Origin: Candidatus Micrarchaeota archaeon
GTDB taxonomy: Archaea > Micrarchaeota > Micrarchaeia > Micrarchaeales > CABMGC01
Direction of reading: 5' to 3'
NCBI GenBank assembly: GCA_021803425.1
Contig: JAJZLN010000020.1
Coordinates: 3,924-67,923 of the forward strand
DNA: 64,000 nucleotides
Each line of letters starts with the position of its first letter. Within the stretch, counting starts at the first letter, position 1. Below, piece after piece: positions 10,430 through 62,318 of the stretch. The position numbers and the translations under genes are program-made. The notes under the pieces are model-generated. The model saw nothing but the letters and a program-made list of their open reading frames with translations. It was not told the origin of the DNA and did not search any database.

Positions 10430-10593
10430 CGGTTGCAGTTTTATAAAGTTGCTTGAAGACGTAGGCTGTTTCCTAGAGCATTATTCCGGAATAGGTATCT
10501 TATTTAGAGTGCTTGTGCCTTCAGTGGAATGCGGCACATTAGGGCTTATTGCCGCGTACAAATAATTAAAACCTATTTGGTGTATATAGTACC

Positions 10594-14771: not shown

Positions 14772-14869
14772 GCAGGGATGGCGGAGCCTGGTCAAACGCG
14801 ATGGACTCAAGATCCATTGGCTTAGGCCTACGAGAGTTCAAAAAACCTGAACAAATCTCTCTCCCTGCA
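14772..14869 (+). tRNA. tRNA-Leu (anticodon CAA), 98 nt, with a 13-nt insertion (candidate intron) inside the T-loop
   Basis: Acceptor GCAGGGA/TCCCTGC plus A; anticodon stem ATGGA/TCCAT with loop CTCAAGA; long variable arm TGGCTTAGGCCTAC. T stem GAGAG (14832-14836)/CTCTC (14857-14861) encloses 20 nt (TTCAAAAAACCTGAACAAAT) instead of the 7-nt TTCAAAT. Confidence 0.8.
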
Positions 14870-15785: not shown

Positions 15786-15904
15786 ATGTCAAACGGCCAT
15801 AGGAGCAGGGAAACGCCCGAACACATACCGAACTCGGAAGCTAAGACTGCTCACGACACGAAATACTGCCCTAACCGGTGGAAAAGCGTGTTGCTGTTTG
15901 GCAT
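15786..15904 (+). rRNA. rrf: 5S ribosomal RNA (orphan, not linked to 16S/23S)
   Basis: Terminal helix ATGTCAAACGGC/GCTGTTTGGCAT. Conserved 5S core CCATAGGAGCAGGGAAACGCCCGAACACATACCGAACTCGGAAGCTAAGACTGCTC and ..ATACTGCCCTAACCGGTGGAAAAGCG. The 84-aa ORF 15685-15939 is therefore spurious. Confidence 0.88.
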
Positions 15905-30257: not shown

Positions 30258-30851
30258 CAGCATGGTAAATCCTACGCCCAATGCTGCAAATGGCATATTT
30301 AACAACTAATAGCGGGAAATCCCACACCATTAATGAGTGGGATGACAGCTAGAGCGAAAATATTACATAAGTGTATATTCATATAATAGGTATTACAAAA
30401 AGATATGATAGTGCAGAAACAAGTGTCCATTTCATGGGATACCATTTCGTATGGTGTCCTAGGTATAGACGCAAGGTTCTGACACCAAAGATAGAAAAGA
30501 GGTTGAAGAAATTGATAAACGATAAGGCAAAAGATTTGGATTGCAAGGTAATTGCACTTGAAGTAATGCCAGACCACGTTCATTTATTCATTCAAGGTAA
30601 ACCCATTTTGACTCCAAACTATATAATAGGGCAGATAAAAAGATATACTTCACATTGCATGCGTGAGGAATTTCCCGAACTAAAAACAAGATTGCCTACG
30701 CTTTGGTCAAGGAGTTATTTCGTATCTACACATGGTCATGTTTCAGATTCATTGATAAAAAGATATATTGCAGAACAGAAGGGATTGTAATATGGAATCA
30801 AAAAAGGCATATAAATTAGAATCTATCAAGTTGAAAACATGGAAACCATGA
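30258..30851 (+). mobile_element. IS200/IS605-family element, tnpA only, probably truncated on the right (boundaries uncertain)
   Basis: Two hairpins lie upstream of tnpA: CAGCATGG..CCAATGCTG (30258-30288) and ATCCCAC-n11-GTGGGAT (30319-30343), as expected for the sub-terminal hairpins of this family. One nt after the tnpA stop, a 19-codon ORF (30792-30851, MESKKAYKLESIKLKTWKP*) may be a tnpB N-terminal remnant. Confidence 0.55.
30371..30790 (+). CDS. tnpA: IS200/IS605 family Y1 (HUH) transposase TnpA
   Basis: 139 aa with YHFVWCPRYRRKVL, HUH motif MPDHVHLFI, and a C-terminal helix carrying the catalytic Tyr region (SRSYFVSTHGHVS..IKRYIAEQ). Confidence 0.9.
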   Translation: MYIHIIGITKRYDSAETSVHFMGYHFVWCPRYRRKVLTPKIEKRLKKLINDKAKDLDCKVIALEVMPDHVHLFIQGKPILTPNYIIGQIKRYTSHCMREEFPELKTRLPTLWSRSYFVSTHGHVSDSLIKRYIAEQKGL

Positions 30852-35681: not shown

Positions 35682-38600
35682 TTAGCGTTTCTCTTCAAGC
35701 GCTCTCATCTCTTCGTCTATATCATTCTTCATTTTTTTGAATTTTGATATGAAGAATATTTTGTATATAATGTATAAAATTATTATTATCAGCAGTATGA
35801 GAAAGGTCTTGAATGATACTATTATGGAATAGATTCTGCTTGAAGTTATCCTGCTTATTATAGAATTGCTTGGTATCGTGGTTGGACTGATTGCGTTTAC
35901 AGGAGTTATTAGAGGGACTATATTAGATGACGCCTGCGACGGCGGTTTGCCAGGAAGGCCCCCAGAAGACGAGGATCCAGAAGATGAGGATTGCACAGTG
36001 GTTGTTTGAGGAACAATTGACGTTGTTGATACTGAGGATGTAGAGGATGTGGTAGAAATGGTGGTTGTTGAAGTTTTAGGAGCAGATGTGGTAGGAGGCA
36101 ATACTGCAGTGCCTCCTGTGCCGCCGCTGTTTATTGACTGTACATTAAGCGTTGTGCCTGCAGTAAGGTTTGTATAATTGGAATTGCCGGGATTCTTGAA
36201 CAAGAACGAATATGTGCCAGGGGAGCCCTGCTCAGTCCAGTGCATCACTGAATCGGTCTTTCCGAAGAGCGCTCCGTTGACGTAAAGCGACCATGCGCTC
36301 TGGTTGCCTATCGTCGGGGTGCCGGTGAATGTTATGTTCACCGCTGAATAGAAGCCTGCAGAGCCGGGATTTCCTGAAATCGTAACTTTGAGCGGGCCTT
36401 GTTCCACATCAATGGTATTGGCAACAATTATCCTTGAAGTGCCCAATATGCTTACAAGTCCGGTATTATAACCTGAAACATAAGCGAACGTATTTGTTGG
36501 ATTGAAGGCTATCTGGAACGGCCCGCTGCTCCCGAAGCCAGGTATTGTATTCACTACCTGATTCGTTATGGAATTTATTACACTTACTGTATCTCCTCCA
36601 TAAAAATCGTCTACATATAAGTAATTGCCGTTGAATGCCATGGTTGTAGATCCTGTTCCAGTGCTTATCTGGTTTGGAAGCAGTGTGCAAGTAGCAACAT
36701 CTATTACACCTATTGTCGAATGGGGAGACGCAGGAAGTGAAACATACGCATAAGTGCCGCTTGGATTGAATGTTATAAATGCTGGCGCAGAGCCAAGGCT
36801 GATAGTATTAATCACAGTGTTAGTCGCAACATTTATCACGTTTACGGTGTTGCTTGAATGATCAGCGACATATGCTATATTTCCATTCGGGGCGAATGCC
36901 ACTCCTTCAGGAGCTGAACCGGATACAATAGTATTGATAACGGTATTTGTTGCGGTATTTATCACGCTTACTGTGTTGCTTTCATAATTTGTAACATAAA
37001 GTATTGAGCCTGAAGGATTGAATGCCAGATCAAATGGAAAATTGCCCACGCCTATCGTATTTACCACGGTGTTCGTTGCAACATCTATAACGCTTACAGC
37101 GTTGCTAGGTGAAGTTATAGAACCGGTGTCTAAAACATATGCAAGAAGATTGTTTGCGGGGCTGAAAGCGACACCAAAGGAATTTGATATTATAGGTATG
37201 GAGTTGACTATGCTGTTTGTATCAGAGTCTATCACGCTGACAGTATTTTCTCCATAGTTAGTGACATATGCTACCGGAAGCGAAGGGTTGAATGCAACGC
37301 TGGCTGGCTGCGGAGTTGCTATCGAATTTACAATCACATCCGGCTCAGAAGAGGTCATGTTTCCTATTATAGTCCATAATCCGAATACAGTATTGGAGGC
37401 GCTCATTGTGTTTGCAGGATACTTTACCCCGTTGAATGAGAATACCAATGAATTGTATGAAGTCTCATTTACCAGAAGACTGAATTCCCCGCTGTCTGCA
37501 GAAGGCATTGGTATTGCCTGTGTAAGCGAATTAAGTGAAGAGATCGGGCTTTCCGTATTTATGAAGCTCCATATCCAGTTCCCAGTGTATGGCGGTATTC
37601 CGCCGGATATCGGCACGCTGAAGTTTGATACCTGCCCGTAAGTTATCGTGGAATTTGATTCGGTGTCAGGGCAGTTCTGGGATATAGGATCGATTGCATT
37701 TATCACGCAGTACGTAGCAACTGTCGCAGTTGGCATTACATTGTTTGGAGGATCGTACCTCAGCACAAAGCTGTTCCAGTATGTTATACCCACATCTGAA
37801 TAAACATTCAGAAGATCATCACCAATTATGCCTAAGTAATTGCCCGTTGATGGAGGGCTTTGTATAGTTATTGATGAGCCTATAGGAGGGCCAAATACAC
37901 CCAGCGGCAAAGAATTCCTGCCTATAAAAGCAGTCATTGTGGAGCCTGACAGCAGGACATCGTATTTGTACCAGGTATGTGAAACTGTAGTATCATTACC
38001 AGAAAAGATAAGATTATAGCCCTGCGCCCATACGCTGGTTGAATCAAAACCTGACGGGAAGAATCCGCCCCGGGTATCCAACCTTGCAAACTGGCCACCT
38101 CCCAGAGAGTTTGCCAATACATACACGTCGCCAAGTCCGGCGTTGTTTGTGCCGTAATTTCCGTAACTATACACCCAGAACGTAAGTATCTCATTCGAAT
38201 TGAAATTTGGGACTGAGGTATATGCATAATCCCCTTCTACAGAATTTGCAAAGAATGCGTTTGATGCACCAAACTCGCTTCCGTACTGTGGCGCCGGCGT
38301 GCTGCCTACCTCGTTCGAAGCAACCTCATTCGTAGTCCAGCCGCTGAAAGAGGTTGGATTAATGTTATAGTATATAAATACATTAGCGCCATCATCGTAC
38401 TGCCCGTATGTAGAGCTGAGCTGCGGTGCTTCGCCTACAGTCTGGCCGTTGAAGAAGTTCTGGGACTGCAACCCGAATCCCAGGTATATCACTGAATTTG
38501 AACTTGGAGGCAGTCCTTGAGGAAGTTTTAGCCAGTATGTGGTGTTAGTTACAGTATTTGAATTTCCGGATTCAAGCCAGCTGTTTATCACATTTCCGTT

Positions 38601-38837
38601 AGGATAGAAGAATTCCACATTCTGGAGGTTGCCTGCTTCGTATGGCGCGTATGCAAGGCTGTTTACATTTACCATCTGCTGGAATGAGTTTGCTGTTGCA
38701 GCGTCTTGATAGTTTGATATGCCTATTGGGACACAGTATACAACATTTGCAGGCACCGAGCCGCAGTATGATGCGCTTGCGCTTTTTAAAAATAGCAAGA
38801 GAATGATTGTTGCTGTTATGTAATGCTTGAAGCCCAT
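35682..38837 (-). CDS. Giant modular surface protein (1051 aa): signal peptide, DUF2341/LamG-like region, Ig-like module, YVTN beta-propeller repeats, conserved module, Ser/Thr stalk, TM anchor
   Basis: Signal peptide ..FLKSASA/SY. The N-terminal region follows the DUF2341-like pattern (NVEFFYPNGNVINSWLE...TYWLKLPQGLPPSSNSVIYLGFG). The Ig-like module carries SGGIPPYTGNWIW. About 7-8 repeats of ~40 aa match the YVTN type (e.g. LAYVTNYGENTVSVIDSDTNSIVNSI, ILYVTNYESNTVSVINTATNTVINTI). The module NITFTGTPTIGNQSAWSLYVNGALFGKTDSVMHW follows. It ends in poly-S/T, a hydrophobic helix and a charged tail. Confidence 0.85.
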   Translation of the reverse strand: MGFKHYITATIILLLFLKSASASYCGSVPANVVYCVPIGISNYQDAATANSFQQMVNVNSLAYAPYEAGNLQNVEFFYPNGNVINSWLESGNSNTVTNTTYWLKLPQGLPPSSNSVIYLGFGLQSQNFFNGQTVGEAPQLSSTYGQYDDGANVFIYYNINPTSFSGWTTNEVASNEVGSTPAPQYGSEFGASNAFFANSVEGDYAYTSVPNFNSNEILTFWVYSYGNYGTNNAGLGDVYVLANSLGGGQFARLDTRGGFFPSGFDSTSVWAQGYNLIFSGNDTTVSHTWYKYDVLLSGSTMTAFIGRNSLPLGVFGPPIGSSITIQSPPSTGNYLGIIGDDLLNVYSDVGITYWNSFVLRYDPPNNVMPTATVATYCVINAIDPISQNCPDTESNSTITYGQVSNFSVPISGGIPPYTGNWIWSFINTESPISSLNSLTQAIPMPSADSGEFSLLVNETSYNSLVFSFNGVKYPANTMSASNTVFGLWTIIGNMTSSEPDVIVNSIATPQPASVAFNPSLPVAYVTNYGENTVSVIDSDTNSIVNSIPIISNSFGVAFSPANNLLAYVLDTGSITSPSNAVSVIDVATNTVVNTIGVGNFPFDLAFNPSGSILYVTNYESNTVSVINTATNTVINTIVSGSAPEGVAFAPNGNIAYVADHSSNTVNVINVATNTVINTISLGSAPAFITFNPSGTYAYVSLPASPHSTIGVIDVATCTLLPNQISTGTGSTTMAFNGNYLYVDDFYGGDTVSVINSITNQVVNTIPGFGSSGPFQIAFNPTNTFAYVSGYNTGLVSILGTSRIIVANTIDVEQGPLKVTISGNPGSAGFYSAVNITFTGTPTIGNQSAWSLYVNGALFGKTDSVMHWTEQGSPGTYSFLFKNPGNSNYTNLTAGTTLNVQSINSGGTGGTAVLPPTTSAPKTSTTTISTTSSTSSVSTTSIVPQTTTVQSSSSGSSSSGGLPGKPPSQASSNIVPLITPVNAISPTTIPSNSIISRITSSRIYSIIVSFKTFLILLIIIILYIIYKIFFISKFKKMKNDIDEEMRALEEKR
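36208..36377 (-). repeat. Conserved ~170-bp tract shared with 43475-43645 (about 93% identical by eye) and 22786-22950
   Basis: By-eye alignment shows about 11 mismatches in ~170 nt. Exact runs include GAGCCCTGCTCAGTCCAGTGCATCACTGAATCGGTCTTTCCGAAGAGCGC and CCGTTGACGTAAAGCGACCATGCGCTCTGGTTGCCTATCGTCGG. Confidence 0.85.
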
Positions 38838-38919
38838 GCTTTGTCCTTATAATTAAAACTTTAAATATCTTTTTATGTAAGCCACCCACCCATAAATAGT
38901 ATAGGCTTCCTTGTCGAGA

Positions 38920-39534
38920 TTAGGTGACTTTAGCCGAGAACCTTGCAATTCTCTGTATCAGGAATCTGGGCTCGTACTCTGATGAGGCATTATATACTAT
39001 CCATACATATCCTGACAGGCTTGTCCCTATTGCATTTGAAGCTAAGATGGACCCTACTTCATTGGGTTGTGTAGTGGCCGGATAAAATATCCATCCATCA
39101 CCTACATCAAGGGTTACAGAGTTTGTATTACCGTCTAATTCAGCCACTATTCCGTTGTTTGGAGGAAAAGTATAACCAGGGCTTTCCTGTATACTAAAAG
39201 GATAAGGCACTTGTGTTTGAAAAAATCCAATGTTTGTTGTATTCTGTGGTGTAATCCCAACTATAACATTGTATGTACCTGCACCGGCAGCCTGGCCTAC
39301 AGTGAACGTAAGCACGGCGAGCGTATTTGCAGGGGTGCCGGAAGGGAGTATGTTTGTGAGAGTAATGTTGGTGCAGAGAAATTCGGATTCAGGTATGCAG
39401 CTCGTTCCGAGATTGTTGTTGCTGAAAACTCCGAGAGAGAAGAGCGCGATCAGCACGATCGCGATTATGAGTATCGCCCACCCATACGTCATCAGGTACT
39501 CCATCGCGCTCTGGAGCTTTGATATATTGGACAT
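38920..39534 (-). CDS. Pilin-like protein with class III signal peptide
   Basis: 204 aa. MSNISKLQSAMEYLMTYGWAILIIAIVLIALF has a short basic leader, Q at the putative +1 position, Glu at +5 and a hydrophobic helix. It lies directly upstream of the 1051-aa surface protein on the same strand. Confidence 0.75.
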   Translation of the reverse strand: MSNISKLQSAMEYLMTYGWAILIIAIVLIALFSLGVFSNNNLGTSCIPESEFLCTNITLTNILPSGTPANTLAVLTFTVGQAAGAGTYNVIVGITPQNTTNIGFFQTQVPYPFSIQESPGYTFPPNNGIVAELDGNTNSVTLDVGDGWIFYPATTQPNEVGSILASNAIGTSLSGYVWIVYNASSEYEPRFLIQRIARFSAKVT

Positions 39535-39541
39535 ATATAGT

Positions 39542-39904
39542 TTACCTAAGCTTTCCGCCTATTGATATTGAATAGGTGTTTATTTTCATGCTTTTAAGCC
39601 TTATCTTTAATTTGTAGTCATTTGTGCATACATTTCCGTATTTGGCAGCCGCAGAGATTATCCAGTTATCAACAAAGCCCGAGTTTGGATCTGTTGTAGG
39701 ATTATGCATCTTTATTGCGGCTTCTGCTGATTTTGCATATTTCCTATACTTTGAATACCTTTTAGCAAGCAATCCAATCTCCCTAAGTATACCTTTTGAT
39801 ATTACTGGCTTGTAGCCAAGTTGTTCTTCTACCGAATTGAATACATCTATCCCCTTTGAGAAGCCGAATATTATTGAACTTGTATCGACGATTATGTTAT
39901 CCAT
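39542..39904 (-). CDS. PIN-domain protein, Fcf1/COG1412-like
   Basis: 120 aa with IIVDTSSIIF (first acidic residue), ISKGILREIGLLAK, VDNWIISAAAKYGN and VCTNDYKLKIRLK. This matches the conserved archaeal Fcf1-like PIN pattern rather than a VapC with an adjacent antitoxin. Confidence 0.75.
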   Translation of the reverse strand: MDNIIVDTSSIIFGFSKGIDVFNSVEEQLGYKPVISKGILREIGLLAKRYSKYRKYAKSAEAAIKMHNPTTDPNSGFVDNWIISAAAKYGNVCTNDYKLKIRLKSMKINTYSISIGGKLR

Positions 39905-39964
39905 GAAATCTGTATAGTATATTGTTCAATAATATATTAGATTTTTGCATGTTTTGTGCAGTGA

Positions 39965-40576
39965 TTGAGGATATGGTATCGATTTATTAATTTAAGTAGG
40001 ATATTCTGTAATATGAGCGTGTTCAGTTACATCAATGCAGAATCTTTTAGACTTGCGGACACAGTAGCAAATCCAGCACTTAATATGATCATGAAATATT
40101 GGGCAGAAAGCTTCTATGTCATTCTGCTTGCACTTCTTGCCTATCTTTACATCAAGAAGGATGAAAATATATTCCCGTACGCCATTTCCGTGGTAGTGCT
40201 TTATGGGATAGGGGAAATTATAAAATTAATAGTAATGGAGCCAAGGCCGTGCGCTAACCCCGATTTTTCCTGGATAAACCAAGTGGGTTGCGAGTCCGGA
40301 TATTCGTTCCCTTCCAACCATGCTACTGTACTGACAGGGCTGTTCATATTTTTCAACAATTATAAGTATGTAAGAGCGGCTTACATAATATGGGTGGTAA
40401 TAGTGTTGTTCGGTAGGATATATTTAGGGCAGCATTATATGACTGACGTCATTGTTGGAGCCATAATAAGCATTGCTTTCTGCTACATGATGCATAAATA
40501 CAGAAAGAGGATTGACTTGATAAGCAAAAAGATACTTGTTGTATTCTCCCCTGTAACTGGCCTTATTGGTATTTGA
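39965..40576 (+). CDS. PAP2-family membrane phosphatase
   Basis: 203-aa ORF with KLIVMEPRP (KxxxxxxRP), SFPSNHAT (PSGH-like) and GRIYLGQHYMTDVIVG (SRxxxxxHxxxD-like), plus several TM helices. ATG 40010 is a likelier start than TTG 39965. Confidence 0.85.
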   Translation: MRIWYRFINLSRIFCNMSVFSYINAESFRLADTVANPALNMIMKYWAESFYVILLALLAYLYIKKDENIFPYAISVVVLYGIGEIIKLIVMEPRPCANPDFSWINQVGCESGYSFPSNHATVLTGLFIFFNNYKYVRAAYIIWVVIVLFGRIYLGQHYMTDVIVGAIISIAFCYMMHKYRKRIDLISKKILVVFSPVTGLIGI

Positions 40577-40972
40577 ATGAGCATAGAAAGAGTCCTTGGT
40601 AAAAACAGCACAATAACAGTAGTGGGGCTGTCAAGGGACGAGACAAAATACAGCCATATTGTGGCAAAATTCATGCAGAGAGTCGGATATAGGATAATAC
40701 CTGTTAATCCGACTGCGGATGTGATACTTGGAGAAAAGGTGTACAAAAGCCTGCTTGAAATACCTGAAAATCCAGGGATAGTTGATGTGTTCAGGCCAAG
40801 TGAAGAGGCATTTGGTATAGCAAAACAGGCTGCTGAAAAAGGTGCGAATGCCGTATGGCTGCAGGAAGGAATTATAAACGAGGAAGCAAAGAAGTACGCG
40901 GAAGCTAAAGGAATTGAATTTGTACAGGATAAATGCATAATGAAGGAATACTTAAGAATTCATGGTGATTGA
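40577..40972 (+). CDS. CoA-binding domain protein (YccU/YneT-like)
   Basis: 131 aa with ITVVGLSRDETKYSHIVAKFM..GYRIIPVNP...YKSLLEIPE..DVFRP. The start codon directly abuts the PAP2 stop. Confidence 0.85.
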   Translation: MSIERVLGKNSTITVVGLSRDETKYSHIVAKFMQRVGYRIIPVNPTADVILGEKVYKSLLEIPENPGIVDVFRPSEEAFGIAKQAAEKGANAVWLQEGIINEEAKKYAEAKGIEFVQDKCIMKEYLRIHGD

Positions 40973-41378
40973 TTTGGATTTGGACATTTATGCTGAGGAG
41001 CTCATATACAATTATGAGCATCCAAAAAACAAGGGAGTAATTGAGCATCCCAGCACGCAGTCGAGCGAAGAGAACATATCGTGTGGGGACAGGATAACTG
41101 TGTATTTAAAGATAGAGAAAGATAAGGTAAGCGACATAAAATTTGAAGGGTCCGGATGCGTGATATCAATGGGCACATCAAACATACTTGTCGGGTTCTT
41201 GAAGGGAAAGACGCTTGCAGAAATAGAGAATTTGGATAAAAACAAGCTTATAGAGATTATTAACATCGACCCAGGACCGGTTAGGATGCACTGCGCAACT
41301 CTTTCCTTGAGAGCAATCAGGAAAGCAGTGCTTGGTTACGAAAATAAGCCAATAGACGCGCAGACAAAGGAACTGTAG
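40962..41378 (+). CDS. NifU/IscU/SufU-like Fe-S cluster scaffold protein
   Basis: 138 aa with NYEHPKNKG, CGDRITVYLKIE, FEGSGCVISMGTSN and RMHCATLSLRAIRKAV (three conserved Cys). 11-nt overlap with the upstream gene. Confidence 0.85.
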   Translation: MVIDLDLDIYAEELIYNYEHPKNKGVIEHPSTQSSEENISCGDRITVYLKIEKDKVSDIKFEGSGCVISMGTSNILVGFLKGKTLAEIENLDKNKLIEIINIDPGPVRMHCATLSLRAIRKAVLGYENKPIDAQTKEL

Positions 41379-41605
41379 GAAACCCAGGCGCTTTTGCCGA
41401 ATCGGATATGAAGTTTATATTGACTTTGCTTAAGCTGGTAGGAAACATCACAGGAAAGCCAGCAGTAATGCTTTATTTATTTCGATGGTAGATTTTCTGC
41501 GCTTTTTTCCTATCTAGCAGGATATCGCTGAAAACTTAATAAAAGGATTTTCTGCAAAGCCGAGTTTTGTCGGACTTCTGCCCATTTGCAAACACCAATA
41601 CTTAG

Positions 41606-42019
41606 CTATGCTATGATCTGCTTTACTTCTTTTATGAAATCAGAAATATCTGAAGTATCGTGTGACTGTCCAAAAGACTCCTTTTCATAGCTGGAATCTG
41701 CATATGCATGTATCAGCAAATTCCTTAAAGTCCTCCTCTCCCTTACTTTGTTTATCGCTTTTTTGCTGAATTTGCCCTCGAACCTATCTATCAGTGAAGA
41801 ATCATCACCACTTAGCCCAAGCTCAAGCCCCTTGTCGAGAAATGCAAGGATATCTAGCTCCACGTCGCTCACCAACTGCAGGTTCCTCTCAACCGCGCTC
41901 TTTAGCATCATATCGGAATCCTTATACGTATCAATGCTATGTGGAGCCATGGAGTCAAGGCGCTTTGCATAAAGCGTAAGATCTGACAGCTTACTCATTA
42001 TTCTTTCTTTGTCAAACAT
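41606..42019 (-). CDS. HEPN-domain (DUF86) toxin of a HEPN/MNT pair
   Basis: 137 aa with the R-x4-H-x-Y motif in RRTLRNLLIHAY. 8-nt overlap with the upstream nucleotidyltransferase gene. Confidence 0.8.
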   Translation of the reverse strand: MFDKERIMSKLSDLTLYAKRLDSMAPHSIDTYKDSDMMLKSAVERNLQLVSDVELDILAFLDKGLELGLSGDDSSLIDRFEGKFSKKAINKVRERRTLRNLLIHAYADSSYEKESFGQSHDTSDISDFIKEVKQIIA

Positions 42020-42530
42020 TTACCAACCCATTCATGATGTTGAACCTGTATTTATAATCAGACCATCTTTTCATTATGTCTACGCTGTAATCATACAATC
42101 TGCTGCTATCCTTCACATACACTATTTTTGCTTCATTGAGCAGACGACTCTGCGCCAAAAGCGGAAGATCATTAAGTATTGAAATGTCAAAGCGTATGTC
42201 CAGCATGCCTATTTGTGAATATTTATTGAGCTCTTCAAACGAACTGCCCTTGTCATCTATCAAAATAGCAATGTCGATGTCCCTGTAGCTCGCATCTTTC
42301 CTTGTATAGCTTCCAAATAAAAGAACAGCAATTACATGCCTGTCCTTCTCGGCCTCTTTTATTATCGCATGGATCCTGCTCTTTATTGTATCCTGCATCC
42401 TGAGCCATTGCACTATTGCTTCTTCCACTGCCTTGCTTATTGAGCCCCTGCCATAGCCAAACCTCTCCATCGCAGTCTCCCTAAGCTTCGCGTCGACGTT
42501 ATCAGCTATATAAATCTTTGTTTCTGCCAT
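42012..42530 (-). CDS. Minimal nucleotidyltransferase (MNT) antitoxin with N-terminal ribbon-helix-helix-like segment
   Basis: 172 aa. The N-terminal ~45 aa (KIYIADNVDAKLRETAMERFGYGRGSISKAVEEAIVQWL) looks CopG/RHH-like. The NTase motif is LLFGSYTRKDASYRDIDIAILI (GS..x..DxD). Confidence 0.8.
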   Translation of the reverse strand: MAETKIYIADNVDAKLRETAMERFGYGRGSISKAVEEAIVQWLRMQDTIKSRIHAIIKEAEKDRHVIAVLLFGSYTRKDASYRDIDIAILIDDKGSSFEELNKYSQIGMLDIRFDISILNDLPLLAQSRLLNEAKIVYVKDSSRLYDYSVDIMKRWSDYKYRFNIMNGLVNV

Positions 42531-42562
42531 ATTAATATCTTTAGGGATAAAGATATTTATAT

Positions 42563-42583
42563 ATTTCTATAGGTCATAGAAAT
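42563..42583 (-). promoter_or_regulatory. Candidate operator (perfect 8-bp inverted repeat) at the MNT/HEPN promoter
   Basis: ATTTCTAT-AGGTC-ATAGAAAT lies 33-53 nt upstream of the MNT ATG (42530). On the coding strand it abuts an ATATATAAATA TATA-like element. Confidence 0.45.
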
Positions 42584-42712
42584 GAAGTCAGAGAGCCCAG
42601 CAGTATAATAAAAAAGAAACAATCTAGATTATTAATGGAAATATAAAGAAAAGATTAAATGCCTAAACAAAGGAACTGTAGACTATAACATTAACTTTAT
42701 TTGAGAGCGGAT

Positions 42713-45700
42713 TTATGATCCTAGCCTTGGCCTCTTGTTTTTAAGCATGTACAGGACTGCAATGATTATTATTATGATGATTATGATTACTGCGATAAGC
42801 AACACACTCGATGTTGAAGATGGAGTCGGCTGAGCAGCGGCAGTTGTAGGAAGCAACGTAGACACTGCTGAAGCGTTTGAAGGCGTTTTTGGCGCAGTAT
42901 GGTTCTGCTCCATTATTGCTACAACGGGATCTGCAGGCATGCTGAATGAGACTGTGCATGATGTTGCATTCACAGTGAACGGAGATATTGCGTCCCACGT
43001 ACCGTTCTCGAGAATGAAAGGCCTTATGTTTGCTGCAGGTATATTGCAAGGATAGCTGTATTTTACGTTTATGTGATTAACTACTGTCGCATTGGATGTG
43101 ATGTTCGTAGCTGAAAGCTTTGTGAAGCCGATGAGGGCGTTCGGAGAGAGCGCAGTAACGTTTATTGCAAGCAGCTTTGCTGTTGAATTTGAGGAGCTGT
43201 TCGATACAAGCTCAATCGTGACTCCTGTGTTGCTGAAGTTTATCTGCTGCGATGCTCCATGCGTCAAGTTAACTGTCTGATTGAGCGAAGTTGATGGAGG
43301 CACTGTAGTTACCACTGTTGATGGCGTGGTAGTTGGAGCAGTTGTAGGTTGAGTCGTTGGAGGAGGGGATGAAGATGAGACTGCAGATCCTCCGGTGCCG
43401 AGCGATCCGACCTTCAGCGTGGACGTAAGCGATGATGAGGTGTAGTTTGCGTTTCCGGGATTGGTGAATGTGAATGAATATGTGCCGGGTGAGCCCTGCT
43501 CAGTCCAGTGCATCACTGAATCGGTCTTTCCGAAGAGCGCCCCGTTGACGTAAAGCGACCATGCGCTCTGGTTGCCTATCGTCGGAGTTCCGGTGAATGT
43601 TATATTCACCGCAGAATAGAAGCCTGCGAAGCCGGGGTTGCCTGATGAAGTCGCAGACAGCAAATCGTTCGATTCTACTACCACGGTGTTTGTCACCTGC
43701 GGCACTGAATAATAGATTGTGGTTCCGGTGTCAGTGACTATCACATTGAATACGTAGTTTCCAGGTATTGTGTTTGAATTTAGCGTATTTGTCGATGAAA
43801 GAGTCGATGGTGAAACTGTGTTTTGCGCCTCTGCGTTGTTGAGCGTGAATGCGTATATGAAATTGCCAGTTCCGCTTCCTCCTGTGACTGCTGCCGTAGT
43901 GATTACAGAGTTTCCGTAAAGTATTGAGTTTGTGACGATTCCTGATCCTGTCTGAACGGTGAGGGAAACAACTGGAGTTGAATATGCGACTATTTGCGAA
44001 GAATGGAGAGAGTTCATTGTAACAGAAATAGATGCATGATCAGAAACGAATACGTTTGACACAAGCGTGTTTCCTGCATTTCCCGTTGCCTGCCAAAGGA
44101 ATGAGTTCGATGATGTAAGCATGTTAGCCACCTGTATGTTAGTAATGCTGTTGTATACGATGAAGTTGTAGGTGTATGGAAGCGTACCTCCAGTATCGTA
44201 TGCTGCGAAATTTACGTATTGTCCTGTGTCTACGAGCGTGTTGGATGCGGAGATTGTCGGGGTCTGAAGCACTGAATTGACTGTGATTGTGGATGTATGC
44301 AACGAGTTCACTGTCACTGAAGTTGATGCGCTGTCCGTTACGAATACGTTTGCCACAATTGTGTTTCCTGCAGATCCCGTTGCCTGCCAGAGGAATGAGT
44401 TCGATGATGTAAGCATGTTTGCGACCTGTATGTTAGTAATGCTGTTGTATACGATGAAGTTGTAGGTGTATGGAAGCGTACCTCCAGTCTCGTATGCTGC
44501 GAAATTTACGTATTGTCCCGCATCTACGAGCGTGTTGGATGCGGAGATTGTCGGAGTTGATAAGTCCGGATTTACTTCTATGGTATTTGATATTGAATTG
44601 GAGACGAATGGAGTTGAGGTGCCGGTGTCTGTTGCAATGATGTTGAATGTCTGGGCTCCCTGAACAGGTATGTTGGAACCGAAGGTTATCGTTCCTGAAA
44701 ATCCGGCAGGCTCTATGATCGTATTTACTACAGTGCCTCCATTCATCAGGTTTACAGTAAACGGACCGGTGCCTCCGGAAAGAATGGTGTTGTATGTTAC
44801 GTATTGTCCAGAATCAAGCATCACATTGGACGGAAGAGGCGTGGTCGAAGAGGGGGCAGGATCTATCGTTATAGTGTTGGACAGTGTCACGGTGTTGCTT
44901 CCATAATAGTAAAGGTTGGTGCCGTTGTCCTGAGCAAACCCGTAGAGTGTCCATTGACCATAGATTGTATTTTGACCTGTACTTTCAGAATATGTAATTC
45001 CATTGAATGTATATGTTAAAGTGTTGCTGCTTACTGCGTCTGTTGTTAATTGCGTTAAACCTGAAGACGGAATTTCCTGCAACGATGTTTCAGGGAGATT
45101 CCCAATTAGGTATACTTGATCTGGGGCAGCTGAAATATATGCAAAAGCGCCAGAGGGGTTGAAAGCCACACCATTTGGATTAGTATTACTTATAGTAATT
45201 GTTTGACTCACGGTATTTGTGGCCACATCAATTACATTTACCTCACCTGCATTGAGTGTTACGTAGGCGAGGGTGCCGGAAGGATTGAAGGCTACATCTA
45301 TTGGAGAAGAACCTACAAAGATTGTATTGACTACTGTATTTGATGATAGTTGAATTACGCTTGCTGTGCTGCCACCTTGGTTTATAACATAGGCGAGGGT
45401 GCCAGAAGGATTTATTGCTAAAGCGTATGGATTAGAACCTACATTGATGGTATTTACTACTGCATTTGAAGCCACATTTATTACACTTACTTCGTTGTTG
45501 TAATAGTTTGTGAAATATACTAACGTGCCGGAAGGATTGAAGGCTACGCCATAAGAAGGAGCACCTACATTAATGGTATTTACCACTGTGTTTGTAGCTA
45601 CATCAATTACATTTACTAGGTTAGTATTATACGACCCAGTATATACTAGAGTGCCGGAAGGATTGAAGGCTAAGTCTCCTTGAACATTTTGTAGGATAGT

Positions 45701-46189
45701 ATTAATTACTGTGTTTGTAGCAAGGTCAATTACGTTTACTGTACCTAATTGCGAAGAGACGTATGCAAGGGTGCCAGAAGGATTGACGGCTAGGCCATCA
45801 GGCTTCGTTTCATAGATAGTATTTACCACACTATTTGTAGCAACATTTATTACGTCCAATTCATATGAGCCAGGAGCAAGAACATAGGCGAGGGTGCCGA
45901 AAGAATTGAAGGCTACGGTACTTGGAGTAGAACCTATAGTAATGGAATTCAAAACATTATTATTTACTTCATTTGAAGTTATCCAGCTCCACTGCCCGGA
46001 ATACGGACCTCCGGATCCGCCGCTCACTGCGGTGTTCGCGACGGATATCTGGCCGACGTCTATTATCGTGTTGGAAATAGTAAAAGAATTGTATGCCGCA
46101 GAGAACTGCGCTGCATGCGAATAGCTCGAAAATACCAGGAACGAGAAAAGGGCAAGGAGCGAGAACCGAATGTAGCTGTAAGAATCCAT
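42713..46189 (-). CDS. Giant modular surface protein (1158 aa): signal peptide, Ig-like module, YVTN beta-propeller repeats, multiple Ig-like modules, conserved module, Ser/Thr/Pro linker, C-terminal domain, TM anchor
   Basis: Signal peptide ..FSSYSHA/AQ. About 7 repeats of the type AFNPSGTLAYV..xxVxVIDVATNTVVNTI are present. Ig-like modules carry GGT(L)PYTYNF and GGTGPFTVN motifs. The module NITFTGTPTIGNQSAWSLYVNGALFGKTDSVMHW is present. The C-terminal domain is shared with 22186-24021 (..VKYSYPCNIPAANIRPF..). It ends in an Ile-rich TM helix and a KNKRPRLGS tail. Confidence 0.85.
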   Translation of the reverse strand: MDSYSYIRFSLLALFSFLVFSSYSHAAQFSAAYNSFTISNTIIDVGQISVANTAVSGGSGGPYSGQWSWITSNEVNNNVLNSITIGSTPSTVAFNSFGTLAYVLAPGSYELDVINVATNSVVNTIYETKPDGLAVNPSGTLAYVSSQLGTVNVIDLATNTVINTILQNVQGDLAFNPSGTLVYTGSYNTNLVNVIDVATNTVVNTINVGAPSYGVAFNPSGTLVYFTNYYNNEVSVINVASNAVVNTINVGSNPYALAINPSGTLAYVINQGGSTASVIQLSSNTVVNTIFVGSSPIDVAFNPSGTLAYVTLNAGEVNVIDVATNTVSQTITISNTNPNGVAFNPSGAFAYISAAPDQVYLIGNLPETSLQEIPSSGLTQLTTDAVSSNTLTYTFNGITYSESTGQNTIYGQWTLYGFAQDNGTNLYYYGSNTVTLSNTITIDPAPSSTTPLPSNVMLDSGQYVTYNTILSGGTGPFTVNLMNGGTVVNTIIEPAGFSGTITFGSNIPVQGAQTFNIIATDTGTSTPFVSNSISNTIEVNPDLSTPTISASNTLVDAGQYVNFAAYETGGTLPYTYNFIVYNSITNIQVANMLTSSNSFLWQATGSAGNTIVANVFVTDSASTSVTVNSLHTSTITVNSVLQTPTISASNTLVDTGQYVNFAAYDTGGTLPYTYNFIVYNSITNIQVANMLTSSNSFLWQATGNAGNTLVSNVFVSDHASISVTMNSLHSSQIVAYSTPVVSLTVQTGSGIVTNSILYGNSVITTAAVTGGSGTGNFIYAFTLNNAEAQNTVSPSTLSSTNTLNSNTIPGNYVFNVIVTDTGTTIYYSVPQVTNTVVVESNDLLSATSSGNPGFAGFYSAVNITFTGTPTIGNQSAWSLYVNGALFGKTDSVMHWTEQGSPGTYSFTFTNPGNANYTSSSLTSTLKVGSLGTGGSAVSSSSPPPTTQPTTAPTTTPSTVVTTVPPSTSLNQTVNLTHGASQQINFSNTGVTIELVSNSSSNSTAKLLAINVTALSPNALIGFTKLSATNITSNATVVNHINVKYSYPCNIPAANIRPFILENGTWDAISPFTVNATSCTVSFSMPADPVVAIMEQNHTAPKTPSNASAVSTLLPTTAAAQPTPSSTSSVLLIAVIIIIIIIIIAVLYMLKNKRPRLGS
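43475..43645 (-). repeat. Conserved ~170-bp tract, copy in the 1158-aa gene
   Basis: See 36208-36377. It corresponds to roughly aa 849-906 of the protein. Confidence 0.85.
43970..44557 (-). repeat. In-frame tandem duplication, 2 x 294 bp (98 aa), inside the 1158-aa gene
   Basis: Protein aa 545-642 and 643-740 both begin TPTISASNTLVD(A/T)GQYVNFAAY(E/D)TGGTLPYTYNFIVYNSITNIQVANMLTSSNSFLWQATG. The first ~60 aa differ at 2 positions and the distal third is more diverged. DNA copies are 44264-44557 and 43970-44263. Confidence 0.9.
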
Positions 46190-46393
46190 ATTTGATCTGC
46201 ATTCCTTTGTTTTATAATATTAATAAACGTTGCCCACCCTCCGCAAAATATCCTCAAATAAACGCATTTCATGCAGAAATTAGGGGGGCGCAGAACACCC
46301 AAAGCTGAACTGAATATAGTCTTTGACATTCAGGAACGGTTTTGCAACGAGATACTGGACCGCCGAAGCGCTGATGAATGATTTACAGTGATT

Positions 46394-49125: not shown

Positions 49126-49596
49126 ATGGAAATCAATGAAGCGTCGCTTATAGAGAATGAGGTCACGGTAAGGAATCTGAGGCTTACCGATGAGGTGCTG
49201 CAGACGAAGAGATCTGAAATAAGGTGGCTTGCACTGGCCCTTGGCATAATAAATCCAGGCGAATCAAGGTTGAGCTCTCTGGCAGTGCTTGATGCGCTGA
49301 TCTACTTCCAGTTTGTGAAGCTGGCAGATCCGACTGTAAAGGAGCTGACAGAATACATCAAGGCAAACTGGGAGGAGATAAACGAGAAAACGCTCAGATA
49401 TCATCTCCTCAGGATGAAGAATATGGGATTCATAGCAAACTCTTCGGGCAGATTTTATTTCAAGCCGCCGCAGACCGGGAACAGGTACGACCCTGACAAT
49501 TGGGCCATGCATATATTTGAATCTAACTATACAGATATAGCAAGCAAGATAAGCAAAGTAATAAAAGACGTGAAATCTAAATCAGTGATTGGATGA
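49126..49596 (+). CDS. Putative winged-helix DNA-binding protein
   Basis: The start is taken at ATG 49126 (MEINEAS..), because the upstream part of ORF 48874-49596 is antisense to pfdB. The wHTH-like segment is VKELTEYIKANWEEINEKTLRYHLLRMKNMGFIANSSGRFYF. The stop overlaps the next gene's ATG by 4 nt. Confidence 0.55.
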   Translation: MEINEASLIENEVTVRNLRLTDEVLQTKRSEIRWLALALGIINPGESRLSSLAVLDALIYFQFVKLADPTVKELTEYIKANWEEINEKTLRYHLLRMKNMGFIANSSGRFYFKPPQTGNRYDPDNWAMHIFESNYTDIASKISKVIKDVKSKSVIG

Positions 49597-51218
49597 AAAT
49601 AAAAGAAAGATATTTGTGGGCATTATTTGTGGCGGCGGTCCTGATAGCTGCAGCATACTTCAGGTTCTATTACCAGCCGGGATTGTACATGAAGGTAGTT
49701 ATGTATAAGCAGAGCGCAGTCATATTCCCCTATCAATCGGTTTCTGTGCCGATAAACATCACCAACACAGGTTCAGCTGAAATAGACAACATGAGCTTTG
49801 GATTATACCTTAACGGAAATAGCACGCAAATATACAAGGTGATACTGCCTGCTGGAAGGAGCGTGACCGTATTTTATAATTTCACCCCGGCGCACAGCGG
49901 AATTTACAACATATCGTTCATGGCTGACCCAAACAACTTCTATAATATACAGGATAGGCAGGAGGCGCACTCTTATGTTGACCTTGCAGTTTCAAACAGC
50001 ATACCCGCAAAACCGTATGAATACTTCAGCGACAACGGACTTATTGGAGAGAACAATGCAAGCATGACTCCGTTTGGGTACGAGGTAGCGCTTGCACTGT
50101 ACGAAAACCGCACCGAGGGAATAACCTCCGCAAGCACCGTATCAACGGGCCTGCTTGCACCGAGCAGCTCCGCACTGCTCAACAGTGAAATAATATACCC
50201 TGCAATGTACGTTTATTCAAAATACATTGGAGACGTCGCCGTGGCTAGCGGCTACTATAAAAATTACACGCTGGTGTCCATGTGGATAAAAGGGCTCCTC
50301 ACGCCGAGCGCAATACAGGACATAGCCGTTGGAAAAGGATTGAACACGACAATAAGGAATAATGTCAGCATAATAAAACTGGGTGGAAACGCCACTCTGT
50401 GCAGCTTCTATGCGGGGGGATGGCTGCAAAACCTTGCACTTATACCTAATAACCCAAATGAGAAAAGTGGAAGCTGCTACTCGGCGCTCTCGGTAGATAA
50501 TGGCAGCTTCAAGAACAACAGCCCATATTACATGCTCAAAACAAGCAATTATTCAATATTTGATTATTCAGGTTCGTTTGGCAACCTGAGCTATGCCGGA
50601 TCGTTGGCGGGAATCAACGGGACGATATATTATGAAAGCATTCTCAGGGGACCGAATCTCAGCAATGAATGCACCGGGCAAATATTCAACATCAGCAATA
50701 GCTCATACTGCAGCTCAAGATATATCGAACCGGGAAACACGCTGCTCACCGAAAGCGGAAGGCTCGTCGGAAACTACAGCTTAAACGTATGGACGCTATC
50801 GAACATTACTGACTTTGCGAGGTCTTACAACCAGGGGCTCGGGCTCCTTGGAAGCTATAATGCAATAGGCAACAGAATAAGATTTGTTTCGGTATACGCA
50901 AACTCGTGCTCGCTGGAAGGCAATCTCACGTGCTTTAATGAAAGCTTCAATTATAACAAACTTTCATTGATGGTACACAATGGGAATGTCGCACCTGTTA
51001 CACTGACGGGCATACAGTGCTACAATTCCGGAAGCGCGGTGGAGAAGACGCTTGGAATCACGCTTCATGAAGGTGAAAACGCAAGCATATCCACAGAATG
51101 CTACTCTAACGGCACCGTAATATCCGGATACCCTATAGGATTGGGGCTTATACTGCGGCTTAATTACACAGAATATGGGAGACCGATGTCTGCTCTAGGA
51201 TATACTTATATACCATGA
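49593..51218 (+). CDS. N-terminally anchored extracellular protein with CARDB-like domain
   Basis: 541 aa with TM helix LWALFVAAVLIAAAYF. The CARDB-like pattern is SVSVPINITNTGSAEIDNMSFGLYLNGN..VILPAGRSVTVFYNFTPAHSGIYNISFMADPNN. The rest is Cys- and N-x-S/T-rich. Confidence 0.7.
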   Translation: MKIKERYLWALFVAAVLIAAAYFRFYYQPGLYMKVVMYKQSAVIFPYQSVSVPINITNTGSAEIDNMSFGLYLNGNSTQIYKVILPAGRSVTVFYNFTPAHSGIYNISFMADPNNFYNIQDRQEAHSYVDLAVSNSIPAKPYEYFSDNGLIGENNASMTPFGYEVALALYENRTEGITSASTVSTGLLAPSSSALLNSEIIYPAMYVYSKYIGDVAVASGYYKNYTLVSMWIKGLLTPSAIQDIAVGKGLNTTIRNNVSIIKLGGNATLCSFYAGGWLQNLALIPNNPNEKSGSCYSALSVDNGSFKNNSPYYMLKTSNYSIFDYSGSFGNLSYAGSLAGINGTIYYESILRGPNLSNECTGQIFNISNSSYCSSRYIEPGNTLLTESGRLVGNYSLNVWTLSNITDFARSYNQGLGLLGSYNAIGNRIRFVSVYANSCSLEGNLTCFNESFNYNKLSLMVHNGNVAPVTLTGIQCYNSGSAVEKTLGITLHEGENASISTECYSNGTVISGYPIGLGLILRLNYTEYGRPMSALGYTYIP

Positions 51219-59831: not shown

Positions 59832-59906
59832 GGACCCGTAACTCAGCTTGGTCAGAGTGGCTGGCTCTTAACCAGCAAGTCGAGGGTTCAAATCCCTCCG
59901 GGTCCG
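59832..59906 (+). tRNA. tRNA-Lys (anticodon CTT), 75 nt
   Basis: Acceptor GGACCCG/CGGGTCC plus G; anticodon stem GCTGG/CCAGC with loop CTCTTAA; T arm GAGGG-TTCAAAT-CCCTC. Confidence 0.92.
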
Positions 59907-62243: not shown

Positions 62244-62318
62244 AGCGAGGTAGGGTAGCATGGAGTGCCCGCCGGGCTCATAACCCGGAGATCGGTGGTT
62301 CAAATCCACCTCTCGCTA
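62244..62318 (+). tRNA. tRNA-Met (anticodon CAT), initiator type, 75 nt
   Basis: Acceptor AGCGAGG/TCTCGCT (A1:U72) plus A. Anticodon stem CCGGG/CCCGG has three G:C pairs next to loop CTCATAA. T arm GGTGG-TTCAAAT-CCACC. Confidence 0.88.

Follow-up and report, generated by a model that had tools for sequence, protein, structure and literature searches.

Architecture of gene A and its product

Gene A occupies positions 42713-46189 on the minus strand of the window, the whole 64,000-nucleotide stretch analysed here, which comes from a population, covered by many assemblies, of a tiny symbiotic Candidatus Micrarchaeota (DPANN) archaeon. Its reading frame is open across 1158 aa, as the initial annotation stated, and the annotation of an NCBI MAG includes the identical protein, P0001. 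Two paralogs lie in the same window, B (35682-38837, 1051 aa) and C (22186-24021, 611 aa). From N- to C-terminus, A comprises a signal peptide, a seven-bladed YVTN propeller, five Ig-like modules, a conserved module of ~87 aa (CM), an S/T/P stalk, a C-terminal beta-sandwich (CTD) and a TM anchor. The features, including the stretch termed here the M region, are:

46190-46300, minus strand: conserved 5' upstream cassette (putative promoter/5'UTR) that runs on into the signal-peptide codons; has a copy elsewhere
46112-46189, minus strand: signal peptide, residues 1-26; the N-terminus MDSYSYIRFSLLALFSFLVFSSYSHAAQ is hydrophobic, and residues 2-24 form a helix in the model
45962-46111, minus strand: Ig-like module 1, N-terminal half, residues 27-76, motif GGSGGPY; z=11.8 against the first half of C's first module
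45098-45961, minus strand: seven-bladed YVTN beta-propeller, residues 77-364, nested in Ig-like module 1; from TIGR02276, AlphaFold and Foldseek
44852-45097, minus strand: Ig-like module 1, C-terminal half, residues 365-446; z=8.4 against the second half of C's first module
44555-44851, minus strand: Ig-like module 2, residues 447-545, motif GGTGPF; z=8-9.5 against Ig3 and Ig4
44264-44554, minus strand: Ig-like module 3, residues 546-642, the first of two copies in a 294-bp tandem duplication (blastn)
43970-44263, minus strand: Ig-like module 4, residues 643-740, second copy of this duplication, with the head-exchange breakpoint at its 5' edge (44264), where collinearity sets in
43661-43969, minus strand: Ig-like module 5, residues 741-843, from model and alignment
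43400-43660, minus strand: CM, residues 844-930, Ig/FN3-like sandwich; its nucleotide island, 43452-43645, is common to B and C
43292-43399, minus strand: S/T/P stalk, residues 931-966 (pLDDT <50), holding the tail-exchange breakpoint at ~43353-43359
42899-43291, minus strand: CTD beta-sandwich, residues 967-1097, with an invariant Y-x-C...C pattern, from protein comparison
42713-42898, minus strand: second S/T/P stretch, TM anchor, basic tail KNKRPRLGS and stop codon, from sequence and model
43340-44560, minus strand: M region, a recombination-prone shared middle with clustered mismatches in mosaic blocks
36184-36377, minus strand: CM nucleotide island in B, from nucleotide comparison
22808-22952, minus strand: CM nucleotide island in C, from nucleotide comparison
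38838-42712: 3.9-kb block between A and B with pilin-like, PIN, PAP2, CoA-binding, NifU and HepT/MNT genes; Pfam labels taken from identical genes on related contigs

The YVTN blades noted initially are well supported: A scores 100.4 bits against TIGR02276 (YVTN repeats; cutoff 27.85) with five stretches above the cutoff, and its AlphaFold model places 28 strands, or seven blades, within residues 77-364 at a pLDDT of about 90. The top PDB match by Foldseek is 1L0Q (E=3e-23), and TM-scores against seven-bladed WD40/YncE targets are about 0.8-0.9. The propeller had been described as N-terminal; it does lie near the N-terminus, but is nested inside the first Ig-like module, because residues 27-76 and 365-446 align with the two halves of C's first module. 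About five Ig-like modules with GGxxPY motifs had been proposed, and we find five modules and four GGxxP[YF] motifs. The modules appear Ig-like as judged solely from predicted secondary structure and the 1L0Q match; no PKD family (Pfam PF00801/PF18911) was found at E<=0.1 in A, B or C. The Ig3 and Ig4 copies align by blastn over 254 bp at 90% identity, with a protein z of 47; this duplication, absent from the output of Tandem Repeats Finder, was detected by blastn.

The anticipated S/T/P linker and TM anchor are likewise present, with linkers at residues 916-978 and 1098-1129 and a TM segment at ~1126-1150. No PGF motif indicative of PGF-CTERM/archaeosortase anchoring occurs in the tail, ...SSVLLIAVIIIIIIIIIAVLYMLKNKRPRLGS, which also has no NCBIfam match. 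The signal peptide is probably of the Sec type, and A is predicted to be a C-terminally anchored, probably heavily glycosylated surface protein. No S-layer profile, including PF05123 (S_layer_N), was matched in A, B or C with Pfam or NCBIfam, and lack of a PF05123 match rules A out as the main S-layer protein. A has no DUF2341 (PF10102) match, in agreement with the initial annotation. The head of B, found in neither A nor C, reaches 16.5 bits (E=0.012) against that profile, below the 23.4-bit cutoff, and by sequence the DUF2341 label for it is only suggestive.

Relationship of A to B, C and the wider family

The proteins are, overall, similar far beyond chance (A-C E=7e-98; A-B E=2.5e-67). At the nucleotide level, the expected shared conserved module forms a sharply bounded island. 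Between A and B it extends over 194 bp at 90.7% identity (window 43452-43645 and 36184-36377), with 88-98% identity per 50 nt, embedded in otherwise unalignable DNA, and C shares 106-145 bp at 83-90%. The longest exact stretch common to A and B is 50 bp, in direct orientation.

The CTD of A is present in C (z=28) and absent from B (z=0.5). Its proposed restriction to A and C holds within the window but not beyond, as the domain is widespread in the wider family, with 203 homologue clusters and a position near the C-terminus in full-length members. No Pfam family matched the CTD. A scan of GTDB genomes located it in 18 loci of other Micrarchaeota/Marsarchaeota species (one record titled only 'bacterium'); the window's species was not among the loci found. 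All paralogs recovered are full-length ORFs that begin with signal peptides. A different tail is attached to B in contig L045 (1122 aa), the breakpoint falling at window 36208, at the end of CM. Among the proteins compared, the B tail is paired with B heads only, and no A/B hybrid was found. The exact A protein is a singleton among about 15 billion proteins. A look-up of the exact protein returned no record, and JGI metagenome scans with protein A and with the 50-mer common to A and B gave no match.

Gene order in the 3.9-kb block between A and B is constant in all contigs recovered via the MNT gene or gene B, three of which (L006, L046 and L047) stop short of one gene flanking the block. Its far edge is altered in one assembly only, GCA_027363095.1, with a breakpoint within the pilin-like gene. 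The neighbouring 204-aa pilin-like gene has no Pfam match; by eye only, its N-terminus MSNISKLQSAMEYLMTYGWAILIIAIVLIALF resembles a class III signal peptide.

Head and tail combinations within one population

The related sequences, short-read metagenome assemblies throughout, are ~99.95% identical to the window in the flanks and lose collinearity inside gene A. The breakpoints coincide with module boundaries, at 44264 (Ig3/Ig4) and ~43359 (directly after CM). Genes of the H2 type (L002, L003, L038-L041 and L047) are collinear with the window exactly from 44264, and L001/L028 and L029 part from it within the S/T/P stalk (~43353-43359). The window itself has the arrangement OB-H1-T2-MNT, in which head H1 is joined to tail T2, and this configuration has partial support in two more assemblies, L042 (with L049) and L043 (with L048). 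L029 has OB-H1-T3-Metallophos/Cdc6, and at least six assemblies have PGI-H2-T2-MNT. The reciprocal PGI-H2-T3-Metallophos/Cdc6, whose protein was located through cluster membership, lies on a 74-kb contig (P0274/L049). Each of the four head-tail combinations is thus represented by long contigs whose flanks are unique on either side. In the exchanges seen, the partners are paralogs at other chromosomal sites, and whole flanking regions move along with them. Most contigs end within the gene, and one end of L048 is a fold-back artefact. The suggestion that these genes form a shuffled domain family is more strongly supported than sequence alone allowed, because contigs of the same population combine heads and tails differently, with breakpoints at module boundaries.

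Variation is concentrated in the M region, which holds 90 of the 94 mismatches to L001 and 83 of the 89 to L002; outside it, L001 differs at 4 positions in 11.7 kb and L002 at 6 in 10.3 kb. The region contains 186 variable sites in mosaic blocks, with at least 18 recombination events (Rm), and its variant blocks are identical between contigs. Third codon positions account for about 77% of differences, each of the 12 substitution types is represented without an adenine bias, and synonymous changes outnumber non-synonymous ones by roughly 3-4:1, so that the exchanged middle segment gives no sign of diversifying selection. By its substitution pattern, the M region reads as a mosaic of old, mostly synonymous variants. 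The middle segment of the window carries alleles at 43714-43716 and 43718 that were unseen in every other sampled haplotype, and it is consequently not a simple splice of sampled sequences. A single crossover between the two genes of GCA_027363095.1 was ruled out, the three middle segments being roughly equidistant (46, 37 and 34 private/shared sites).

Discussion

Our results describe a family of predicted surface proteins that may be built from exchangeable units, namely a head (the signal peptide and the propeller inserted into an Ig module), a shared middle (Ig4-Ig5-CM) and a tail (the stalk, membrane-proximal sandwich and TM segment). A most likely uses its stalk to present the YVTN propeller and the Ig-like array in contacts with other cells or with the host. 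For the architecture, breakpoints, mosaic pattern and reciprocal gene that we observe, homologous recombination among paralogs at conserved segments is the best reading and a probable one. The shared middle would be kept ~90% nucleotide-identical among paralogs by purifying selection and gene conversion, and would at the same time offer paralogs at separate chromosomal sites the sequence needed for homologous recombination. The H1-T2 gene of the window would then be one product of a reciprocal exchange between H1-T3, beside Metallophos/Cdc6, and H2-T2, beside MNT/HepT. Such a reciprocal exchange would imply a chromosomal inversion, which we infer to be its geometry, with the joins taken as real in vivo events.

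Short-read repeat mis-resolution is a serious rival, less probable than recombination yet a distinct possibility. The family and its shared middle would be real, but H1-T2 and the other unusual joins would be wrong assembler paths through a repeat of co-occurring paralogs or strains, with no rearrangement in vivo. The breakpoints do fall in repeated segments, most contigs break inside the gene, and a wrongly resolved repeat with two entries and two exits yields exactly such 'reciprocal' pairs. Moreover, exact matches between sampled H1- and H2-type genes reach 185 bp (>k=141), and 270 bp in L048, the contig that terminates in a fold-back artefact; protein A was seen once only. Against this, the window's junction region has alleles that none of the sampled parents carries, and where a single crossover between those parents fits best, the interval measures only 14 bp (43752-43765), less than a de Bruijn join requires. 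Joins of the H1-like-T2 and H2-T3 kinds are also found repeatedly, in three assemblies whose middle haplotypes all differ. The reading frame is intact at every join, although homologous mis-joins would also keep the frame.

Two further mechanisms account poorly for the data. The initial annotation proposed that the direct repeats of A and B could delete or invert the block between them (38838-42712), and the 194-bp island with its 50-bp exact core, together with the role of CM as crossover point in other exchanges, lends this some plausibility. Direct orientation permits deletion but makes inversion geometrically impossible; no contig obtained by way of MNT, B or relatives of A shows either event, the block order is the same in all those found via MNT or B, A-type heads are in no protein joined to a B tail, and a deletion would remove NifU-like and other housekeeping-type genes. 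We therefore regard rearrangement by this route as very improbable. Targeted hypermutation of 43340-44560, for example by a diversity-generating retroelement (DGR), is less credible still. DGRs are common in DPANN archaea, and the variation here is extremely localised in an otherwise near-identical background, but the substitution spectrum, with its third-position excess, mostly synonymous changes, 12 substitution types and no adenine bias, contradicts a process of this kind. In addition, variant blocks are exactly common to several contigs, the region, at 1.1 kb, is far above a typical DGR variable repeat, and no template repeat was present among the repeats found.

Beyond recombination among paralogs as such, a more speculative and rather unlikely extension is that Ig4-Ig5-CM, above all the ~200-bp CM island, is kept as a dedicated recombination hinge for head and tail reassortment in episymbiotic DPANN. 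Taken jointly, this would have heads binding ligands or hosts, tails anchoring in the envelope, and each exchange inverting a chromosome segment with one end beside cdc6, as an archaeal counterpart of bacterial surface variation within one strain-level population.

In bacteria, surface-protein variation through recombination among paralogs occurs, for example, at Campylobacter fetus sap, where DNA inversion is used, and at Treponema tpr. The A family resembles these systems in that conserved segments of paralogous surface-protein genes appear to serve as crossover sites that yield new combinations. It differs in that neither a single expression site with silent cassettes nor a dedicated invertase was found, the copies all look complete with their own signal peptides, and the exchanged middle of A, evidently under purifying selection, is not itself a variable antigen. 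The promoterless or truncated donors of cassette-type antigenic variation were not seen among the paralogs, which are full-length, and the exchanges appear reciprocal.

The protein type is already known from Micrarchaeota. 'Ca. Mancarchaeum acidiphilum' Mia14 has strain-specific PKD/YVTN/CARDB surface proteins with a proposed role in host interaction (Golyshina et al. 2017, PMC5498576), and compared by description these share with A the phylum, the domain vocabulary, a very large secreted form and proposed host contact. That study covers the gene content of one genome, and we found in it no description of paralog head-tail exchange or population-level breakpoints. The Methanosarcina mazei surface-layer protein fragment 1L0Q combines a tandem YVTN beta-propeller with PKD domains (Jing et al. 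2002, as cited in PMC5498576); going by that citation, it and A are alike as archaeal extracellular proteins with a seven-bladed YVTN propeller followed by Ig-like/PKD-like sandwiches. In A, however, the propeller is nested in an Ig-like module and there is no Pfam PKD match, and A adds the lineage-specific CM, S/T/P stalks, membrane-proximal sandwich and C-terminal TM anchor. The main Micrarchaeota S-layer protein SLP_Mh, of the PF05123 type, is an abundant, glycosylated envelope protein (Gfrerer et al. bioRxiv 10.1101/2021.04.28.441871). A is likewise a predicted envelope protein of this phylum, but A, B and C, which match neither PF05123 nor another S-layer profile, would be accessory anchored proteins rather than lattice proteins.

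DPANN archaea live on the cells of a host, and the foremost candidates for recognising that host are their giant surface proteins. If the joins are real, the diversification of such proteins is visible in a single population in which ~99.95% identical genomes differ in head-tail pairing, exchange at domain boundaries would vary the surface between otherwise near-identical strains, and PCR or long reads could track the four junctions through time or from host to host. As a practical warning, Micrarchaeota MAG assemblies break, or may be mis-joined, at such genes. Upstream of A, synteny between the window and L032-L034 ends at 46302, and a 206-bp copy of the upstream cassette, 94% identical to window 46095-46300, terminates contig DAHXRX010000022, where it lies downstream of a gene for a CoA ligase.

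Architecture of a modular gene family

Three intact genes share modules in the window, all on the minus strand:

42713-46189 (-), gene A, 1158 open codons
35682-38837 (-), gene B, 1051 aa
22186-24021 (-), gene C, 611 aa

That these are real genes with common building blocks, as the initial annotation observed, is confirmed by their open reading frames, by the YVTN-repeat model TIGR02276, which A and B pass with 100 and 154 bits (cutoff 27.85), and by protein similarity well above chance (A-C, E=7e-98; A-B, E=2.5e-67). No Pfam or NCBIfam family matched C, and no fourth family member was found within the window. Charged residues are scarce and N, S and T abundant in all three proteins; A contains 1.1% K+R, 3.7% D+E and 16 N-X-S/T sequons. 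An NCBI MAG contig of 73 kb carries an annotated protein identical to A (P0001), and homologues are labelled Candidatus Micrarchaeota.

Domain layout of A by residue, from an AlphaFold2 model (34-sequence alignment input, mean pLDDT 75) and sequence comparisons
1-26, signal peptide
27-76, three strands with GGSGGPY motif
77-364, 7-bladed propeller, 28 strands (pLDDT ~90)
365-446, further strands
447-545, 546-642, 643-740 and 741-843, four more Ig-like modules
844-930, conserved module (CM)
931-966, S/T/P stalk, disordered
967-1097, C-terminal beta-sandwich (CTD), invariant Y-x-C...C pattern
after the CTD, second S/T/P stretch, TM helix (~1126-1150) and basic tail

The first Ig-like module of C is matched in two pieces, its first half by residues 27-76 (z=11.8) and its second by residues 365-446 (z=8.4). 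Because these halves flank the propeller, and given the strand order of the model, the propeller appears to be inserted into Ig-like module 1. It is therefore near the N-terminus as annotated, but would be nested in the first Ig module rather than strictly preceding the array; this split module and the four others make up the expected five or so. In B, the counterpart of this split module is nearly contiguous and lies ahead of the propeller, with a weakly supported candidate last strand after it (z=4.3). The head of B, which gives a sub-threshold DUF2341 match (16.5 bits), is missing from A, as had been noted, and also from C. Ig3 and Ig4 of A arose by recent tandem duplication of a 294-bp unit, the copies being 90% identical over 254 bp (protein z=47).

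The CTD is common to A and C (z=28) and lacking in B (z=0.5). The claim that A shares it only with C holds within the window but not beyond, where the CTD is present at 18 loci in genomes of further Micrarchaeota or Marsarchaeota (for one, the record title says just 'bacterium') and where 1.84 billion representatives yield 203 clusters homologous to CM plus CTD, which lies near the C-terminus of full-length homologues. Modelled separately from C (pLDDT 78), CM plus CTD gave generic Ig/FN3 matches only. Compared at the DNA level, as the initial annotation proposed, A and B are unalignable outside a sharp-edged island in the CM, 194 bp at 90.7% identity (43452-43645 vs 36184-36377). Taken 50 nt at a time, the two genes are 88-98% identical within the island and 20-56% beyond, 14 of 18 differences fall at third codon positions, and the longest exact stretch common to the two genes is 50 bp. 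C carries 106-145 bp of the island at 83-90%, and other family members carry the CM almost unaltered.

Exchange of heads and tails in gene A

The compared contigs, taken from multiple MAGs at NCBI and assemblies at ENA, are from the same population as the window. Outside one segment of A, contig L001 has 4 differences from the window over 11.7 kb and L002 has 6 over 10.3 kb; within 43340-44500 the counts rise to 90 and 83. Collinearity is lost inside gene A. Coming from the upstream side (OB-fold/Rpp14/DHH), L001/L028 and L029 follow the window as far as ~43353-43359, in the stalk directly after the CM (breakpoint 43359), and then continue into other tails and other downstream genes. Contigs L002, L003, L038-L041 and L047 match only from 44264, the Ig3/Ig4 boundary, and have a different head, with PGI, AhpC and PDH upstream of it. 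Heads are labelled H1 (OB side) and H2 (PGI side), and tails T1 (beta-CASP side), T2 (MNT side) and T3 (Metallophos/Cdc6 side). T1 and T3 share 91% protein identity, with divergence confined to about the last 20 codons.

Head-tail combinations
H1-T1, L028
H1-T3, L029, 1157 aa
H2-T2, 992 aa, at least six assemblies
H1-T2, this window only, singleton cluster
H2-T3, P0274, 996 aa

Residues 1-760 of P0274 show 98% identity to P0003 and the remainder is T3; its gene lies in the context PGI-[gene]-Metallophos-Cdc6-ParA on a 74-kb contig of GCA_027363075.1. In the same assembly L042, which begins within the gene, joins an H1-like Ig array to T2-MNT. In ERZ27237454, L043 joins an H1-linked middle haplotype to T2-MNT and L048 joins PGI-H2 to the beginning of a T3-like tail. 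Together with L029 and the window, these define two arrangements, each the reciprocal of the other: H1-T3 with H2-T2, and H1-T2 with H2-T3. The differing combinations across contigs of one population bear out the proposed shuffled domain family. Keeping both products of such an exchange on a circular chromosome would require the recombining copies to be inverted, so that the event was probably an inversion.

The segment of exchange is itself a mosaic. In this shared middle (~43340-44560, the Ig4-Ig5-CM region), 14 haplotypes carry 186 variable sites in 44264-43340 as blocks shared in varying combinations, and a four-gamete test on nine fully covered sequences gives at least 18 recombination events. 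About 77% of differences lie at third codon positions, every substitution type is present and synonymous codon changes outnumber non-synonymous ones roughly 3-4:1, a pattern that points to old, selectively constrained variants being reshuffled rather than to fresh mutations. The same three features rule out DGR-type mutagenesis of the segment. The window is identical to L029 as far down as 43752 and to L039 over 43642 to 43140.

All population evidence comes from short-read metagenome assemblies, in which a wrongly resolved repeat can give unusual head-tail joins. Reciprocal pairs exactly like those observed arise when a repeat that can be entered by two paths and left by two is so misresolved; identity is unbroken over 70-185 bp between the H1- and H2-type genes compared and over 270 bp between L048 and the H1-linked type, and most contigs end within the gene. 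Such an artefact is a serious but less likely source of the exchange. Three observations speak against artefact alone: the window carries at its junction, between the L029-like and L039-like stretches, alleles absent from all other haplotypes (43714-43716 and 43718), a single crossover between sampled parents fits best in an interval of just 14 bp (43752-43765), and the swapped configuration recurs in three assemblies with three different middle haplotypes. On balance we favour real recombination, with some reserve. The terminus of L048 (MEGAHIT; 10576-10780) is a fold-back assembly artefact that truncates P0009, being the reverse complement of adjacent upstream sequence and 99.5% identical to L029 11842-11638.

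B offers a sole instance of tail swap. In ERZ27237285, a 1122-aa variant (L045 4919-8287) joins the B head and CM to a CTD-containing tail almost identical to that of P0014/P0024, followed by genes of 181 aa and 88 aa and PriX in place of Rpb7/Spt4. The breakpoint, at window 36208, marks where the CM island of B ends on its 3' side. B's tail occurs with B heads only, and C is 611 aa in all three cluster members.

A toxin-antitoxin pair at 41606-42530 (-), made up of an MNT (Polbeta/NTP_transf_2, 172 aa) and a HepT-like protein (137 aa), lies directly downstream of A and accompanies T2 every time. T3 adjoins Metallophos, Cdc6/Orc1 and ParA genes (L029 12128-15345; L049 9012-12229), so one exchange partner may lie close to a replication origin. 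The conserved 5' cassette of A (upstream region and signal-peptide codons, 46095-46300) has a 94% copy at the end of L001 (17734-17938), after a CoA-ligase gene, indicating that another paralog begins there. L032-L034 carry ~520 bp extra between the OB gene and the cassette (L032 8519-9038), including a 77-aa remnant of the same CoA-ligase 3' end, which points to an earlier deletion between tandem paralogs.

Stability of the block between A and B

The initial annotation also predicted that repeats in A and B could delete or invert the 3.9-kb block between them (38838-42712), and this prediction is not supported. Gene order is identical in every contig recovered via the block's MNT gene or B, with L006, L046 and L047 ending short of one flanking gene, and no deletion is seen among them; inversion is impossible because the repeats are direct. 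The only variable edge is the 204-aa pilin-like gene at 38920-39534 (-). In GCA_027363095.1 a 209-aa allele (L003 16158-16787) is followed by the rpL3 operon instead of B; ahead of B, this assembly has HMG-CoA reductase and two tandem pilin paralogs of 205 and 204 aa (L005 8555-9918). Breakpoints fall in the near-identical N-terminal coding part; the 204-aa gene and the 209-aa allele share their first 47 residues and have 145 mismatches in 39000-39499, making this gene a second local hot spot. No Pfam family matched it, so the label 'pilin' derives solely from the N-terminal motif.

Relation to known systems and nearby features

The outcome in the A family resembles that of bacterial surface-gene recombination systems, which are defined by silent cassettes and diversifying selection on the exchanged segment; the A family differs in having neither. 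The protein type itself is already known: the top PDB match to the whole A model, 1L0Q (E=3e-23), is an archaeal YVTN-plus-PKD surface protein from Methanosarcina that represents the same type. For the Micrarchaeon Mia14, a role in host contact has been suggested for PKD/YVTN/CARDB surface proteins specific to that strain (PMC5498576). The lattice protein of Micrarchaeota belongs to the PF05123 type (bioRxiv 10.1101/2021.04.28.441871); A is neither that protein nor PGF-CTERM-anchored.

A 541-aa CARDB-domain protein (49593-51218 (+); PF07705 on collinear contigs), 3.4 kb from A, is a predicted surface protein and invariant among contigs seen. About 5 kb beyond B, an IS200/IS605-type Y1 transposase (PF01797, 118 aa; ~30434-30790 (+)) is annotated on collinear L004-L007, at the same position in all. 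The window also holds a 5S rRNA gene (15789-15902), tRNAs at 373-445, 59832-59906 and 62244-62318, and a 98-nt tRNA match (14772-14869) long enough for an intron.
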